Shown: one piece after another, positions 1,151 through 56,471 of the stretch
Numbering within the stretch: position 1 is the first letter of the stretch
How the letters are laid out: each line of letters opens with the position of its first letter
DNA from: Bdellovibrionales bacterium
Lineage (GTDB): Bacteria > Bdellovibrionota > Bdellovibrionia > Bdellovibrionales > CAYMLA01
Direction of reading: 5' to 3'
DNA: 64,000 nt
Assembly: GCA_965217115.1 (NCBI GenBank)
Contig: OZ244239.1
Location: 1,664,001-1,728,000, forward strand
Translations under genes and position numbers: made by a program
The notes under the pieces: generated by a model
Database searches by the model: none
The model's input: the letters and a program-made list of their open reading frames with translations, nothing else
What the model was told of the DNA's origin: nothing

Positions 1151-1174
1151 GTCAAGCGCAGGTTTCTAAAGTGA

Positions 1175-1290
1175 GTTTTTTAAGTGGGCTTTTGTTTTCA
1201 GATGAGTTCGGCTTGGTGCTCTGCTCGCTGAAGCGAGCGGTGCAGCCAAACGCATGTCTGAATCTGAAAATAGAAGCCCACTTAAAAAAC
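1175..1290 (+). ncRNA. Long structured hairpin element (candidate ncRNA/ssDNA motif), related in its core to the MITE hairpins
   Basis: 29-bp arms 1175-1203 / 1262-1290 pair fully with two G-U; inner hairpin CTGCTCGC-TGAA-GCGAGCGG; internal-loop strands GAGTTCGGCTTGG and CAAACGCATGTCTGA. Confidence 0.55.
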
Positions 1291-1392
1291 GGCACCATTC
1301 GCCCAAACCCAGCAAAAATTGGTTAAAAGTTAAACAAAACCCCAACCTTTACCAAAATAATTCAGAAATTCGCATAGTTTTCTCGACCTGTC

Positions 1393-9564: not shown

Positions 9565-9611
9565 ACAAATATTTTAAAAAATATGCTAAAAAAATAATTA
9601 AATTTCTGTAT

Positions 9612-10050
9612 GGTTTTTTGTGATAAATAGTGGAACTGTTCCCAAGAGATCCATTGACCCATTGATTGAATACGGCCTTTTTTTCTAGAGTCTCTCCCAA
9701 AAGAATCCAGTTCTTTTCGGCGAGTTTGGCTTGGCGACTTCCATTGCATTTCTCTGCAATGGGAGGTGACAAACGGATGTTTGAGCAAGAAAAGGGCTGG
9801 ATTCTTTTGGGAGAGACTCTAGAAAAAAACGGATCATCAGAGAAAAACTGGCTCCACTATTGTTTGTCATAAAGAATCCAGTTCTTTTCGGCGAGTTTGG
9901 CTTGGCGACTTCCATTGCATTTCTCTGCAATGGAAGGTGACAAACGACTGTTTGAGCAAGAAAAGGGCTGGATTCTTTTGGGAGAGACCCTAGAAAAAAA
10001 ACGGCTCATCAGAAAAAAACTGGCTCCACCGGTATTTATCACAAAGAACC
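9612..10050 (+). mobile_element. Non-autonomous MITE with ISL3-like ends (copy 1; carries an internal ~171-bp tandem duplication)
   Basis: TIRs GGTTTTTTGTGATAAATA / TATTTATCACAAAGAACC; 8-bp target duplication TTCTGTAT at 9604-9611 and 10051-10058; homologous to 43030-43488. Confidence 0.85.
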
Positions 10051-10068
10051 TTCTGTATGAACTCTTTA

Positions 10069-10177
10069 TGACAATCTGCGCAGGGGTTAGACACCTCAAA
10101 ACTTCTCAAACATTGATAGTTTGATATCTGAGCTATTTTTTCAGTGGCATAGAATGTGTAGTTTAGACTCTTGAAAT
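10069..10177 (+). promoter_or_regulatory. Conserved ~110-bp upstream module with sigma54-like promoter
   Basis: TGGCATAGAATGTGTA at 10145-10160; module aligns with the reverse complement of 52376-52486. Confidence 0.6.
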
Positions 10178-17336: not shown

Positions 17337-17990
17337 TTAAAAGTAGCCACCGTCATCTCCGCCGTCATCATCGCTTATATCTTTAAAGGGGTTGTCTGAA
17401 GGGTCATCAAAGGTGTCTTCAGATTCAGGATCGTCTTCCCAGTCATTGGAGGTTTCAATAGAGGAAGAGAGATCGTCAGGCTCTGTAGATTCATCATCGT
17501 TTGCTATTTTTTTGTCTCTAGGGTCTTTTGCGATAAAAGGGTTGCCTGATGTAGACAAAGGAGTGTCGTCTGTATCGTTAGCGATGTCCTCAAAAGAACG
17601 GACTTTAGGTTTCCTTGTTTTCCCGGCACTCGTGGGTCGTCGGTTTGTTGATTTATATTGGGCAGTTTCTTTTTCAGAAGGAATAATAACCTCATCACCA
17701 ATATTAGGGGAGAGTGGAGCATTGGCCATTGTTTTTTTCTGAGGGGCTTTTTTTCGAGGTGTTTTCTTTTTAGTGACTTTCTTTTTAGTGGCCTTCTTTT
17801 TAGTCACTTTCTTTTTAGTGACCTTCTTTTTAGTGGCCTTCTTTTTAGTGACTTTCTTTTTAGTGGCCTTCTTTTTAGTGACTTTCTTTTTAGTGGCCTT
17901 CTTTTTAGTGACTTTCTTTTTAGTGGCCTTCTTTTTTTTGGCTAAACCTTTTTGAGTGATTTTTTTTTTAGTTGTTTTTTTCTTAGCCAT
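17337..17990 (-). CDS. Histone H1-like Lys-rich repeat protein with acidic C-terminal tail
   Basis: Alternating KKKAT/KKKVT pentapeptides (15-bp DNA repeats) then a D/E-rich tail; AGAGG RBS. Confidence 0.8.
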   Translation of the reverse strand: MAKKKTTKKKITQKGLAKKKKATKKKVTKKKATKKKVTKKKATKKKVTKKKATKKKVTKKKVTKKKATKKKVTKKKTPRKKAPQKKTMANAPLSPNIGDEVIIPSEKETAQYKSTNRRPTSAGKTRKPKVRSFEDIANDTDDTPLSTSGNPFIAKDPRDKKIANDDESTEPDDLSSSIETSNDWEDDPESEDTFDDPSDNPFKDISDDDGGDDGGYF

Positions 17991-26448: not shown

Positions 26449-26940
26449 TTGGCGAAAAAAAAGAAGGCTGTGACCAAGAAGAAAGCGACTAAGAAGGCTG
26501 TGACCAAGAAAAAAGCGACTAAGAAGGCTGTGACCAAGAAGAAAGCGACCAAGAAGGCTGTGACCAAGAAGAAAACAGTCAAAAAAGCATCCGTATCTGC
26601 TAAGAAAATGTCTGAGAAGACAGATGTAAAAACACTTGAGATCCAGCCTAAAATCCTTCAAAGAAAGGCAAGGAAGGATCCACTTTTGATAAAAAAGCTC
26701 ACTCGTGCTGAAGAGAAGGCTTTATTAGAGGCCTCTGAGATGACACGTAAATGGCTTGCACTTTATCGTCGATCTTCAAATACCGATGCTCCTAATTACT
26801 CTATGGGAGAAAAATATGGGGTGTCAGGCCCCATAGAGCATAAAACCCTTGGTTGGGGGTACATCTTGTCAAACGTGAACGATCGTTTAGAAATTATCTT
26901 CAAAAAAGGGGTTAAGACTCTGATTTCTAATTATGATTAG
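26449..26940 (+). CDS. Lys-rich histone-like repeat protein with a small globular C-terminal domain
   Basis: TTG start after AAGGAGG; KKAVT/KKKAT repeats; C-terminal YSMGEKY...IEHKTLGWGYI...RLEIIFKKGVKTLISNY. Confidence 0.75.
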   Translation: MAKKKKAVTKKKATKKAVTKKKATKKAVTKKKATKKAVTKKKTVKKASVSAKKMSEKTDVKTLEIQPKILQRKARKDPLLIKKLTRAEEKALLEASEMTRKWLALYRRSSNTDAPNYSMGEKYGVSGPIEHKTLGWGYILSNVNDRLEIIFKKGVKTLISNYD

Positions 26941-42851: not shown

Positions 42852-43029
42852 GCTCAGTGATGATTATAAAGGGGTTCATGGAGTCAGAGAGTTCTCTCCT
42901 AGACAAAAATCTGGGAAGAAGGGGGTATTCAGCCACAACGTACTGATTTTAAAGAGCAATCAGGCTCTGTAAAGGAAATGAGTGATTTTCCTCAAATTGT
43001 CTTTGAGATCTGTGTGGGAGCTTTGATTT

Positions 43030-43488
43030 AGTTCTTTGTGATAAATATTGGTGGAGCAAGTTTTTTTCTGATGAGCCGTTTTTTTTCTAGAGTATCTCCC
43101 AAAAGACTCTAGCCCTCTTCTTGCTCAAACATCCGTTTGTCACCTTCCATTGCAGAGAAATGCAATGGAAGTCGCCAAGCCAAACTCGCCGAAAAGAACT
43201 AGAGTCTTTTGGGAGATACTCTAGAAAAAAATGCCGTATTCAATCAATGAGTCAATGGATCTTTGTGTAATATCAAAGGGGGTTGTACAAAAGACTGGGA
43301 AGGCCAAAGTGTTGGTTTAGAAATAGGTCATTTATTCTGGACAAATTTGCTCGAAAGTTTAAAACGAATAATAATAAACCTGGACTGACCTCCATGTATA
43401 ACAACGCTGTTATCCATGGATAGTTTTAGAAAGAGAGGCCTCAAGATGAGTCTCTTGGGAACAGTTCCACTATTTATCACAAAGAACC
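43030..43488 (-). mobile_element. Non-autonomous MITE with ISL3-like ends (copy 2, longer form)
   Basis: TIRs AGTTCTTTGTGATAAATA / TATTTATCACAAAGAACC; 8-bp target duplication TTTGATTT at 43022-43029 and 43489-43496; inverted homolog of 9612-10050. Confidence 0.85.
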
Positions 43489-43623
43489 TTTGATTTTATT
43501 GTGTTATTTGCTTAGGAAAACCTGTAAATATCCCGAATAACTGCAATGAGACAACTAAAGTAAGAAAACGGCATCTTGAAACTGTTATAAATTTGGTGGC
43601 AGTTTCACCTTGTAGAAGGAGTT

Positions 43624-52375: not shown

Positions 52376-52486
52376 ATTTCTAAGGTTCTAGAGTACATAT
52401 TCTATGCCATGGAGAAAACAGCTCAGATAGCAATCTATCGGTCACTGAGCTTTTTTGAGGTGTCTAACCCCTAGCGTAGATTGTCA
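52376..52486 (-). promoter_or_regulatory. Second copy of the ~110-bp sigma54-like upstream module
   Basis: Minus strand TGGCATAGAATATGTA (52409-52394); aligns with 10069-10177. Confidence 0.6.
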
Positions 52487-52539
52487 GTTTGGAGCTTTAA
52501 AAAGAGGCTTTTAAAAGCGATGTTTTTTGAACTCAATCA

Positions 52540-52612
52540 AAAAAAAAGGCCACTTTACAGTGACCTCGTCGCAATCTCCTGGGCCTATCGGCTGAGGATG
52601 AATCATTCATCT
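52540..52612 (-). repeat. Conserved RNA/terminator element, copy 1 of 3
   Basis: CCAGGAGATTGCGACGAGGTCACTGTAAAGTGGCC-T9 on the minus strand. Confidence 0.8.
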
Positions 52613-52619
52613 GGGGTCT

Positions 52620-53027
52620 TTATTTCAAGTCAGAGCAAACTCTTTCAAATGGGTTCAAGCCTTTCCAAAGGCCAGTATTATCTCTATAAGTGAATTTTGA
52701 AAAACCAGATAAAGAATCATTTTCGATGATAGGGATCAGGTGGACTTGCACCCCCTGGTATTCATCATGTTCACCCAGTATACCGTAAAATACAGGAGTG
52801 TTAGCTGGAATGTTAAACTCCTGTAAATAGCCACTGCCCTTTTCTGACAGAGACAGTTCACCTGTGTTTTTACTATATGATGTTTTCACAATTAACGTCT
52901 GACCGTTCCCTTCAATTTTAATTGAACAGTCTTCTCCTCTCTCGTCCACCCCAGAGTAAACGACTGCAGCTCTCGCAAATGATGAAATTGAGGTCAAAAT
53001 AACAACAGCTAATAACATTTTTTTCAT
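52620..53027 (-). CDS. Secreted hypothetical protein
   Basis: Signal peptide MKKMLLAVVILTSISSFARA; AAGGAG RBS. Confidence 0.75.
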   Translation of the reverse strand: MKKMLLAVVILTSISSFARAAVVYSGVDERGEDCSIKIEGNGQTLIVKTSYSKNTGELSLSEKGSGYLQEFNIPANTPVFYGILGEHDEYQGVQVHLIPIIENDSLSGFSKFTYRDNTGLWKGLNPFERVCSDLK

Positions 53028-53189
53028 TCTATTCTCCTTGGTTTTAATTGTTTATTTTGATGCACACTAGCATGTAAGACGCAATGCAAACAGAGTCATT
53101 GAAAAGGTTTCATGATGACTAGCTAATAAAGTGAAGTCTACAGAGACTTTCACATGACCATTTCACTGAAATGCGAGTAATCTAATTAG

Positions 53190-54020
53190 ATGAAAAATTC
53201 AATCAATATTTATGACTTTATAGATTATAGAGAATTTTTAAGTTCCTACATTGAACAAATGCAGGAGGTAAAAAGCTCTTGGAGCTTAAATGCATTTGCA
53301 AACTTGCTTGGAGCCAAAAATGGTTCAACAATTTTCAAAATCTTAAATGAAGAAAGAAATTTAGGAAATGAGTTAACAAAAAAAATCTGTAATTACTTTA
53401 ATTTCCTTCCCGAACAAGAAGAGTATTTTAGAGATTTAATAAAATTAGATCAATTTAGTAAAAGTTCAACAATTTATAAACTTGTCAAGCGTGGACTTAA
53501 ATCGAAACTAGAAGACACCAAAGTTCGAAACGTCGAGATGAACAGAGATAGTTCTAACAGTTCTATTTGGTATTATATTCTACGAGTCTTGATCGAGAAT
53601 AAAATACTTGATCCTGAGACTTATAAGCTTAAAGAGGAGCTTTACGTATGTCCTCCCTCAAATATTCAACAAATTGTAGCTGATCTTAAAAGGGAAAAAC
53701 TATTAATCAAAAAAGATGGGAAGTTGATATTATCAGATGAACACCTTGAAACATTAACATCGACAATCCCAGGTAGCCTTTGTAGGACCCATATCAATAT
53801 GCTCGAATTTACAATTGAGACGTTTAAAAACATCGATTTCAATAAGGAGAATCTTTATTCATCAAACTATACTGTTTCCCTGACAGAAGAAGATTACAAA
53901 GAGTTAAGAAATGAATTAGCTGAAACGATCAGAGTGTTTGTAAATGAGTGTAGTGGGAAAATTAAAAGTCAAAAAAAGGTCTATCAATTACAGTTCCAAT
54001 TATACCCGCTTATAAGGTAA
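53190..54020 (+). CDS. TIGR02147 / DUF4423-type HTH protein
   Basis: IYDFIDYREFL...SLNAFANLLG...EEYFRDL N-terminus and KVYQLQFQLYPL C-terminus typical of this family. Confidence 0.8.
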   Translation: MKNSINIYDFIDYREFLSSYIEQMQEVKSSWSLNAFANLLGAKNGSTIFKILNEERNLGNELTKKICNYFNFLPEQEEYFRDLIKLDQFSKSSTIYKLVKRGLKSKLEDTKVRNVEMNRDSSNSSIWYYILRVLIENKILDPETYKLKEELYVCPPSNIQQIVADLKREKLLIKKDGKLILSDEHLETLTSTIPGSLCRTHINMLEFTIETFKNIDFNKENLYSSNYTVSLTEEDYKELRNELAETIRVFVNECSGKIKSQKKVYQLQFQLYPLIR

Positions 54021-54159
54021 ATGAGTTGTTTTCTTTATTCGTTTTGAACCCATGGGCGACTATAGACGATTTCAAAAATGACTAGCAGAAATTTAGCCCG
54101 CTATGTAATTTCTCCCGATTTTCAGAGGTTGATTTTAAAAACGATGTTTTTCGAGTTCA

Positions 54160-54202
54160 CAAAAAAAAGCCACTCAACAGTGACCTCGTCGCAATCTCCT
54201 GG
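54160..54202 (-). repeat. Conserved RNA/terminator element, copy 2 of 3
   Basis: CCAGGAGATTGCGACGAGGTCACTGTTGAGTGGC-T8 on the minus strand. Confidence 0.8.
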
Positions 54203-54245
54203 TTCAGATGAACAAGTTAGCTTTTAGAACTAGTGAAAAAAATAA

Positions 54246-54599
54246 CTAGAAAACTGGAAGTCTCTTTTTAAAACGATTACCAATATCAAATTTATCTCCA
54301 GCTTTTTGCCCTAATTCTTCATAAGTAAATTTAACGAATGTTCCATAGGGAGTATAGGCTATACAGTCATCTGGCTCGTCGTCTAGCCTTACTCTGCCAA
54401 GGACAATTTGTACTGGGGAGGTTTTTAATTGAAGAATGACAAAATAAGATTTATCCGTACAGCCATCACTCTCAACTTGAAAAGTTACTCCTGTAGAATC
54501 ATATACTAAGCCTAAAATTACCTCTGGCTCTGGCAGTTGGTACTCTGCAAATACTGAGAACGATGCCAGTAAACTAAATATAATAATAATCTGTTTCAT
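54246..54599 (-). CDS. Secreted hypothetical protein (paralog of 56103-56471)
   Basis: Signal peptide; shares EVILG..YDSTGVTFQVES.GCT.KS and KFTYEELGQ.AG.KFDIGN. Confidence 0.8.
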   Translation of the reverse strand: MKQIIIIFSLLASFSVFAEYQLPEPEVILGLVYDSTGVTFQVESDGCTDKSYFVILQLKTSPVQIVLGRVRLDDEPDDCIAYTPYGTFVKFTYEELGQKAGDKFDIGNRFKKRLPVF

Positions 54600-54779
54600 T
54601 GTTACTCCTAAAATTAATGGTTTTATTATAAGTCTTGTCCATAACTTAAGTGAAGATTTGCCATCACCCCTACAAAATAAGCAAGAAATAACTTATTTTA
54701 ACGCAATGACGGAGTAATTTTTACAAGTTTAAAAAAGTAATCTTCTAAATTTTCTTTTTTAAATCGTGGATTTCTAAAT

Positions 54780-54852
54780 AAAAAAAGCCACTCAACAGTG
54801 ACCTCGTCGCAATCTCCTGGCCTTATCGGCTAGGGATTGATTATTTATCTAG
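54780..54852 (-). repeat. Conserved RNA/terminator element, copy 3 of 3
   Basis: Core identical to copy 2, with the 5' extension (ATCC..AGCCGATA..GCC) shared with copy 1. Confidence 0.8.
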
Positions 54853-55113
54853 TGTTATGACAGATAAGAGCGTAGAGGCTTAACAAAACCTAAATAATCT
54901 CCGATAGGGCAGAGGAGCTTTGCAAAAGGTCCTCAGAATATTAAAAAGGGAAGGAGAGATGGGTAATCAACTAAGGAAACGAATAAAAACTAGCAAGCTA
55001 AGAGATAACAAACCCTGTAACATGTTAATTTTATTTAAATAAATGTAGAGAAAGGTGTTTGTGCAGTTATTTGAACTAGTTATGAATAGCATTTATATGT
55101 GGGAGTTTATATC

Positions 55114-55824
55114 ATGAGAGCTAGCAAAAAAATAGAAAAAGCTCGTTCTTTTCTTCTTGCACATTGTGTAGGGTCTGCTTTTATATTCCAGCATTTATTT
55201 ATACCTGATTTTGCATATTATTCTACATTCTCAGAGCAATTTTTCAGTTTGAAGGGTTTGTTACTTAAACTTAAAGTATTTTCTCTAGGCTTTCTTACAT
55301 CCATCGTTATTGTTAGTGTGTTGCCTGCGATCTTCATCTACATAAATAAAGCTTACCTTCTTCCTCGAAAAATCAGAAGAAAGAAAATACTTGAGAAAAA
55401 AAAGCAGGAACATTCAAGAAAACTTACAAATCAGGGTAGGGAAATTGCTCATAAAATAATTACAGATGAAAGAAAGAAAAAAGATCTTTTATCTATTAGG
55501 AACCAGCGATTTGATATTTTATACAATTTACTAGTGAAATATGAAAAAATTGATGAATATCTAGAAAAGTATCCTTGGTCTTGGGTTGCGACTGCTACGG
55601 ACGATATTTGTCTTATTAGAGAAGATAACACATGGGATAGTATTATTTATGAAGGATTATGTACTAATAAAGATTTGAAAGAGTTAGAAAAAAAATATTG
55701 CGATATTGTTGGTAAAATTTCAGATGAAATCAAGAGACAAGTAATTAGAGATGAAATCAATAAGTACATAAAACCAAAGGAATTATCTGATCTAAGGAAC
55801 AAATTAGAAAATAAGGTTGCATAA
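55114..55824 (+). CDS. Hypothetical membrane protein
   Basis: Two hydrophobic segments followed by a charged domain; GGGAG RBS; very AT-rich. Confidence 0.7.
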   Translation: MRASKKIEKARSFLLAHCVGSAFIFQHLFIPDFAYYSTFSEQFFSLKGLLLKLKVFSLGFLTSIVIVSVLPAIFIYINKAYLLPRKIRRKKILEKKKQEHSRKLTNQGREIAHKIITDERKKKDLLSIRNQRFDILYNLLVKYEKIDEYLEKYPWSWVATATDDICLIREDNTWDSIIYEGLCTNKDLKELEKKYCDIVGKISDEIKRQVIRDEINKYIKPKELSDLRNKLENKVA

Positions 55825-56102
55825 GTCAATAAACTTACTATATCAGAAACAATCTAATTAACGTAATGACTAAGTAATTGTTACAAAATTAAAATATTAA
55901 TTTTCTTAACTTGCCCTTAAAGGCAGGGGCTTATGAATAAGAAAAGGTTGCCAGCTTGGCAATTTTTTTTTCTGGCTCAAACGAACGGGGTAGTTTTTAG
56001 AACCTAGAGACAGAAAAAAAATAAATGGCCCGTTACTTGGGCCATTCGGTTTAATTGAAATTCCATTGTCTTTGTGTGTAAGGTTTAATTACAAACCTAA
56101 AT

Positions 56103-56471
56103 TCAGAAAATCGTGATTCGATCATTAATTTGATTACCAATGTCAAACTTGGTTCCAGCACTTTGACCAAGTTCTTCATAGGTAAATTTAATGTATTCCC
56201 CATAAGGAACAGATACTTCACAATTATCTGGACGGGTTCTTTCAATCATGACTTGTACTGGGTAGGTTTCTAATTGAAGAACGACAAAGTCAGATTTTTC
56301 TGTACATCCATTACTTTCAACTTGGAAAGTGACACCAGTGGAATCATAAATAAAACCCAATATCACCTCTGATCCTGGTGATTCCGACGATTCCGACGAT
56401 TCTGATGATTGACTTTCTACAAACACTAAACAAGATGCTAATAGGGAAACTATAAGGATATATTTTTTCAT
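56103..56471 (-). CDS. Secreted hypothetical protein (paralog of 54246-54599)
   Basis: AGGAGG RBS, signal peptide, SSE x3 linker, conserved core shared with the paralog. Confidence 0.8.
   Translation of the reverse strand: MKKYILIVSLLASCLVFVESQSSESSESSESPGSEVILGFIYDSTGVTFQVESNGCTEKSDFVVLQLETYPVQVMIERTRPDNCEVSVPYGEYIKFTYEELGQSAGTKFDIGNQINDRITIF

Follow-up and report, generated by a model that had tools for sequence, protein, structure and literature searches.

Paired stem changes in an ISL3-ended MITE hairpin of a Bdellovibrionales genome probably represent one arm variant copied in DNA

Three stem pairs differ on both arms between two MITE hairpins of the window, the 64,000-nucleotide stretch of the Bdellovibrionales assembly GCA_965217115.1 (G000 below) that was analyzed here. 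These paired differences probably represent one arm variant that was copied in DNA and spread by conversion between copies, in an element that has ISL3-type ends and a hairpin presumably captured from a wider family. The MITE and its three paired changes are ordinary. The evidence for this reading lies in the pattern of alleles across the copies of the element, in the membership of its hairpin in a family of related heads, and in signs of copying between the arms of that family.

An ISL3-ended MITE with a long hairpin

Copy 1 of the element occupies positions 9612-10050 of the + strand (439 bp), starting 47 nt past a NuoI-like gene. The protein families encoded in the window suggest a Bdellovibrio-like host. 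It is bounded by an 8-bp target-site duplication (9604-9611 on the left and 10051-10058 on the right, + strand) and by terminal inverted repeats, the left of which is ISL3-like (9612-9634, + strand) and the right of which is read on the - strand (10025-10050). The hairpin unit is duplicated in tandem inside this copy, the second unit (9871-10000, + strand) being without the outer part of the left arm. Copy 2 lies on the - strand at 43030-43488 (459 bp), between exact 8-bp duplications at 43489-43496 and 43022-43029. Across G000, 42 near-identical heads were found at 38 loci, in elements that range from 212 to 522 bp, and the 8-bp target duplication is exact in 16 of the 30 two-ended elements, with one mismatch in four more. 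With terminal repeats, 8-bp duplications, multiple copies, short length and no transposase of its own, the element qualifies as a MITE with ends of ISL3 type, which bears out the label that it had been given in a preliminary description made from the sequence alone.

The left end of the element is identical to the right end of an ISL3 locus from the same order (L035) at 18 of 22 bases. Among 45 ISL3 loci, a search conditioned on an 8-bp repeat defined the ends of nine, and the left end of the MITE is the closer to ISL3 right ends in five cases against two. The strand of the MITE hairpin that carries G-U pairs coincides with the leading strand at 29 of the 38 loci (p=0.0017), GC skew being used to place origin and terminus. 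For ISL3 elements an orientation bias against fork movement is reported in the excerpted text of PMC3971601, and the likeness of the MITE left end to ISL3 right ends would fit such a bias.

None of the elements contains a transposase, the best tblastn match of ISL3 proteins to them having E=0.029. In G000, which is 99.4% complete, no match was obtained for the ISL3 transposase family PF01610, for the ORFs of the 45 ISL3 loci by tblastn, or for any of four other transposase families (PF01797, PF01609, PF13358 and PF13610). MITE DNA had no convincing match in 60 relatives, the two weak ones spanning 25-32 nt, and across 300 genomes of the order its arm motif was no commoner than the control, with 3 positive genomes against 6. 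The few hits in wider collections (0 and 2 in metagenomes, 2 in GTDB, 0 and 0 in viral sequences) were chance matches.

Two other elements of G000, at 1971321 and 2041717, share the ISL3-like left end and then continue with different sequence. At G000:2002820-2004768 a MITE hairpin is apparently split in two: some 1.75 kb containing two small ORFs separates its parts, and the right part is followed by a tRNA-like sequence. A truncated IS1595-family transposase fragment occurs at L011:1405-1842 (G000:877003); as no MITE end motif lies nearby, it was rejected as the source of the MITE.

Two hairpins that differ at paired stem positions

Hairpin 1 (+ strand) consists of a left arm at 9678-9718, made of a 7-nt T run and 34 nt, a right arm at 9789-9829, and an intervening head at 9719-9788. 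The head belongs to a conserved, asymmetric head family and comprises an inner stem and an apical 11-bp hairpin, with GA at 9722-9723 opposite GA at 9783-9784. The 41-bp stem combines the 7-bp T/A run with 34 bp, of which 32 are Watson-Crick pairs and two are U-G (9711/9796 and 9712/9795); both U-G pairs are common to all 35 complete copies and have been corrected in none of them. Hairpin 2, in copy 2, lies at 43080-43231 on the - strand (arms 43080-43120 and 43191-43231), has the same inter-arm distance of 70 nt and carries the minor arm variant on both arms.

The two-sided changes at three stem pairs, and the positions of both hairpins, are exactly as first claimed: between copy 1 and copy 2, the pair 9692/9815 changes from C-G to A-T, 9705/9802 from A-T to C-G, and 9708/9799 from C-G to T-A. 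The other stem differences had been described as giving G-U pairs, which is right as to their kind (T-A to T-G) but not as to their number, since there is one such site rather than several. The hairpin is predicted to fold at -92.5 kcal/mol on the + strand (z -13.0) and at -77.1 kcal/mol on the - strand (z -12.4), and the + strand is the better fold in every one of the 35 copies.

Alleles are probably exchanged between arms and between copies

Allele tests were performed on the 35 copies in which both arms are ungapped, the 7 of 42 heads lacking a full ungapped arm being excluded. One-sided stem changes in these copies amount to 14 G-U, 12 A-C and 8 other mismatches (p=0.85), or to 9 G-U against 6 A-C when they are counted as distinct states. 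The retention of G-U pairs had been taken to favor selection on a folded strand, an argument that does not survive the alignment of the MITE copies, in which G-U and A-C are about equally frequent. Nor do the three changes behave as separate compensations: they are linked and form one inherited arm variant. Linkage (phi) is 0.45-0.67 between partner sites and 0.41-0.62 between non-partner sites. Any of the three alleles is carried by 12 copies, just two of which, copy 2 among them, are matched at all three pairs, and the carrier cells at the three sites comprise 10 Watson-Crick pairs, one G-U, five A-C and seven other mismatches, so that 12 of 23 are A-C or other.

The same alleles recur in mirror image. 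In arm coordinates, 8 of 10 right-arm variants equal left-arm variants, where 2.5 are expected, a count reached in none of 100,000 permutations; three of these mirror alleles are never found on both arms of one copy. Over all 35 copies there are 34 non-Watson-Crick cells, against 52.4 when arms are shuffled between copies, and 12 two-sided cells, against 3.4. Leaving out the five copies in which both arms have the variant brings the count to 25 mismatches, against 27.7 in the shuffled sets (p=0.10). Ancestry accounts for the better-than-shuffled match of the arms across the 35 copies, and selection is a further possible cause of it. Furthermore, the MITE copies are mosaics: the four-gamete test rejects 70 of the 189 marker pairs, and the consistency index on a heuristic tree is 0.34. 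The allele pattern is that of exchange between arms and between copies, not of pair-by-pair selection, and recurrent hot-spot mutation could be an added source of mirror alleles and homoplasy.

Diversity among 24 elements is 0.052 and 0.048 in the two arms, 0.053 in the body and 0.011 in the head stems. The equality of arm and body diversity, together with that of G-U and A-C, indicates that selection now acts weakly, if at all, to keep the MITE stem paired. Within the head, variable sites make up 4 of 42 stem positions and 8 of 13 loop positions (p=3.5e-4), the sole common head-stem polymorphism being U-A/U-G on the + strand. This low head-stem variation may result from self-correction of short hairpins and a higher mutation rate in loops or, equally, from constraint on the head.

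The MITE hairpin belongs to a wider head family

Comparison of the genome with itself exposed a second group of repeats with a related head. The heads matched in G000 by an iterated profile number 109, of which about 67 lie outside the MITE. A unit without ISL3 ends lies in the window at 1172-1293 (+ strand), with its head at 1204-1262 and unrelated self-complementary arms of 29 bp. The relationship of the MITE hairpin to this group was assessed with two models, both built without it. A profile of 22 heads from other genomes matches 9720-9786 with E 4.6e-6, and a covariance model of 20 non-MITE units scores the hairpin at 58.6 bits on the + strand and 30.5 bits on the - strand. The hairpin is thus a member of the wider head family, one that would have been captured by the element.

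Arms were measured with 5 of the 109 heads skipped, and the 64 non-MITE units have a median arm of 29 bp and fall into 21 arm clusters. In an alignment of 20 units, chosen by hand at about one per locus or arm type once the G-U count of the 64 units (see below) was known, the heads (~60 nt) are 86% alike, whereas arms of different units are 52% alike and yet those of one unit are 94% complementary to each other. Two-sided change is seen in 29 of 29 arm pairs, and the head also holds compensated pairs; its higher identity than that of the arms, together with these pairs, indicates that something constrains the head. A kink-turn is formed by tandem G-A pairs beside a 3-nt bulge. In 35 aligned units the GA/GA of the head is nearly invariant and k-turn-like on the + strand only, the bulge reading at least 4 nt.

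The covariance model has matches in 27 of 150 genomes of the order, with none in the 19 genomes of one genus, while in a phylum-wide sample of 150 the six positive genomes are all of that same order. One relative (G273) has as many as 82 motif matches. No Rfam family reached its gathering threshold, the sub-threshold matches being to miRNA hairpins only. Searches of the main texts of mostly open papers returned no description of the head family, and PMC2267715, searched by term, contains no mention of Bdellovibrio; we regard the family as an undescribed variant, possibly with a new copying behavior. In another relative (G267), a 134-bp inverted repeat round the head at L160:1027-1236 reaches the contig end, where it may be longer or may be an assembly fold-back.

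The wider family shows a G-U excess on one strand

Read on the strand that gives GAG...TGA through the head, the 64 units contain 66 G-U against 18 A-C cells; as distinct states per arm cluster, the counts are 30 and 15 (p=0.036). The 20 hand-picked units contain 18 G-U and 1 A-C, a ratio that is less safe than the unselected 66:18 because the units were picked by hand. In this set the G-U cells cluster in four columns, and 14 of the 18 fall in two adjacent ones, 10-11 pairs from the head. The relatives show the same tendency, with 43 G-U against 13 A-C in 42 arms from 20 other genomes, or 12 against 3 by genome (p=0.035), 13 of the 33 genomes having yielded no arm of at least 15 bp with the motif applied. 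The p-values for the family overstate the effect, since kin are not independent. The fixed U-G pairs of the MITE, 9-10 pairs from the head, occupy about the same stem position as the family wobbles. A folded molecule of defined strand polarity had been proposed for the MITE; the polarity is missing in the MITE copies themselves but present in the wider family, where G-U exceeds A-C on one strand.

In a toy model with symmetric mutation and arm copying but no selection, 96% of positions pair, 25% show two-sided change, and G-U equals A-C. Given this equality, compensation can be ascribed to copying, whereas the wobbles need a strand-specific cause, whether selection that acts on a folded strand or a mutational bias between strands.

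One form of the first is selection on a folded + strand RNA, either a small RNA or an RNase III-processed mRNA end, acting in the MITE copies as well. It would be in keeping with the one-strand G-U excess of the wider family, with the GA/GA motif being k-turn-like on one strand only, with the conserved head stems and with the better + strand fold of all 35 copies; furthermore, the genome has an RNase III gene, and a same-strand gene lies upstream at 31 of 43 wider-family loci. We nevertheless consider it unlikely. Selection of this kind in the MITE is at odds with the equality of G-U and A-C and with arms as diverse as the body; at loci flanked by genes that run the same way, the G-U strand is the antisense one in 17 cases and the sense one in 6 (p=0.035, from rough ORF calls); no family in Rfam reaches threshold; and the patchy spread over the order resembles that of selfish repeats.

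Somewhat less likely still is that structural selection had no part and that the G-U excess of the wider family came from strand-biased mutation, such as deamination of an exposed strand, or from a few inherited wobbles. Clustered as they are in four columns, and most of them in two adjacent ones, the G-U cells of the hand-picked set may descend from few events; the excess is also modest when expressed as distinct states or by genome. Against it stand the strong conservation of the head relative to the arms, the head's own compensated pairs, and the persistence of the wobbles at one stem position even though adjacent pairs have turned over.

It is scarcely credible that errors of assembly or consensus calling in a repeat account for the differences between copies. 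The genome was assembled into one contig and has 42 near-identical heads, but the variants recur in several copies and are mirrored between arms. The variant at 43094 is not such an error, as both letters are seen in contigs from four runs of one sample (possibly the assembly's own source and so not independent of it), the copy-2 letter making up about 14, 15, 16 and 5% of depth, near its share of 5 of 35 copies in the assembly.

Arm-to-arm copying as the proposed source of the paired changes

Two units of a further relative (G290; L159:909-1150 and L138:1290-1520) bear on how arms come to match. Their 3' arms run into a tRNA-Ser gene, and their 5' arms repeat in inverted form the end of that gene (24 nt in one unit, about 13 nt in the other) but not the rest of it, which argues that host DNA was copied into the opposite arm. 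A template switch that produces multi-base compensatory changes is described in the excerpted text of PMC8794818. Arm-to-arm conversion by template switching had been offered as the other explanation of the MITE stem, and it is the one that the data favor; in the MITE, arm copying is a likely cause.

We propose that the one arm variant formed by the three two-sided changes was most likely copied from arm to arm in DNA, probably by template switching or conversion, and that conversion between dispersed copies would have spread this variant and then broken it up. An ISL3 transposase, not found in the present assembly, would once have moved the element in double-stranded form, and the hairpin would be a single family unit captured by ISL3 ends. 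In the wider family, arm-to-arm copying may keep the arms matched, copies of a tRNA end having been shown twice, and the G-U excess would point to a folded single-strand stage, most likely ssDNA handled by a putative mobilizing enzyme.

A broader joint reading is possible, if doubtful as a whole. The family would be an order-wide class of foldback elements whose head serves as a strand-specific ssDNA signal and in which one flank is rewritten as the mirror of the other, host DNA included, so that each unit acquires matched arms, from 15 to over 60 bp long. Such elements would have gene and tRNA ends as insertion sites and flank cassettes of genes for secreted proteins, and they would be moved by a Y1/HUH enzyme and could be captured by unrelated ends, here those of ISL3.

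Arm copying in this family would provide a natural case in which DNA copying is able to generate most of a textbook covariation signal, here seen in 29 of 29 arm pairs, and covariation-based RNA discovery would class the family as a structured RNA. If the head truly directs mirror copying, it would constitute a local signal for inverted duplication.

Genomic placement and a candidate mobilizing enzyme

At 26 of 43 loci in G000, and in 47 of 60 matches in relatives (some of them duplicates; crude ORF calls), a wider-family unit borders on the end of a gene that points the opposite way; these units show no replication-strand bias (17 of 43). Cassette-like arrays, in which units alternate with small one-strand genes that have signal-peptide-like starts, are located at G000:426500-431500, 473500-483500, 526000-535000 and 1813500-1822500, and the last unit of an array often adjoins the stop codon of an opposite gene. 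The 74 proteins encoded next to units indicated no common enzyme.

In one relative (G020), units detected with the model flank a Y1/HUH transposase gene in four of eight loci (L271, L272, L276 and L277, each with head and stem), and one more locus has a partial unit. The Y1 protein, of 187-194 aa, is multi-copy in that genome (copies about 80% identical), and its best PDB matches are the 'transposase' entries 2xm3 and 2xma (E 0.003), which we take to be ISDra2 TnpA. The link between Y1 genes and units did not extend to other sets of loci (0 of 12; none convincing among 30, with a best E of 0.021; 0 of 29). No Y1 gene was found in G000, nor did the G020-type query have a match in several high-copy genomes (G142, G139, G151, G007, G121 and G148). 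A role of Y1 as general mobilizer was rejected, the G020-type protein being present in 12 of 27 family-positive relatives against 82 of 150 genomes overall; Y1 is a lead from one genome, not an assignment.

Two other origins were considered. A retron origin was rejected, as the sole reverse transcriptase of G000 has no head nearby and none of the 74 neighboring proteins is a reverse transcriptase. An integron attC origin is not supported by linkage to an integron integrase, as the one neighboring integrase scores best as XerC/D and has 129 bits against an integron cut-off of 265. Three tyrosine recombinases are encoded in G000. The reverse transcriptase itself (L114, G000:1867139-1870675) is of retron type, 315 aa long, with a gene for a 104-aa HTH protein and a long non-coding leader upstream.

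Comparison with known repeat systems

The closest counterpart of the element as a whole is an ISL3-mobilized MITE of 187 bp from Microcystis aeruginosa PCC 7806, which, as excerpted from PMC11448079, likewise has no transposase, about 30-40 copies, a predicted stem-loop, short terminal repeats starting GG(C/T)TCT, and 8-nt direct repeats. The Microcystis copies are identical, whereas those of G000 are mosaics of variable length; in addition, no ISL3 transposase was found in G000, and the hairpin would have been captured from another repeat family.

The hairpin has its nearest parallel in REPIN/BIME elements and their RAYT enzymes, which, according to the excerpted text of PMC3116915, are likewise extragenic hairpins that occur in tandem clusters, show compensatory changes (described as common) and probably pass through an ssDNA stage. 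The unit that flanks a Y1 gene (IS200/RAYT-like) in G020 is a further likeness to REP-RAYT systems. Unlike the head family, with its conserved head and diverged arms, REPINs are described in the same source as having conserved ends and a less conserved middle. Moreover, G000 is without a Y1 gene and the Y1 loci of other genomes show no link. The MITE hairpin is REPIN-like in its working but not a REPIN by architecture.

Correia/NEMIS and YPAL elements resemble the MITE as small dispersed elements with long predicted stems (excerpts of PMC2229807 and PMC10969869), YPAL having internal inverted repeats as the MITE does, and in the same excerpts RNase III cleavage is reported for Correia transcripts. 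Unlike Correia and YPAL as described there, the MITE has no TA duplication, its own being fixed at 8 bp. As in template-switch (quasipalindrome) mutation, where one event yields several apparent compensatory changes, a single transfer would account for the three paired changes; the gap between source and target is at most 8 bp in the excerpts of PMC8794818, whereas the arms lie 60-70 nt apart here, and in the wider family the copying appears to reach into host DNA, in contrast to the cases of that study.

Other repeats in the window

A dispersed repeat adjoins copy 1 at 10082-10172 and recurs at 52382-52472, with about 15 similar sequences in the genome. The segments 52539-54855 and 54393-56378 hold a 79-nt repeat in three copies and a 141-nt repeat in two, among short genes. 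Tandem repeats of 15 nt occur at 17704-17972 and 26461-26604, the latter of which encodes a lysine-rich, histone-like peptide repeat.
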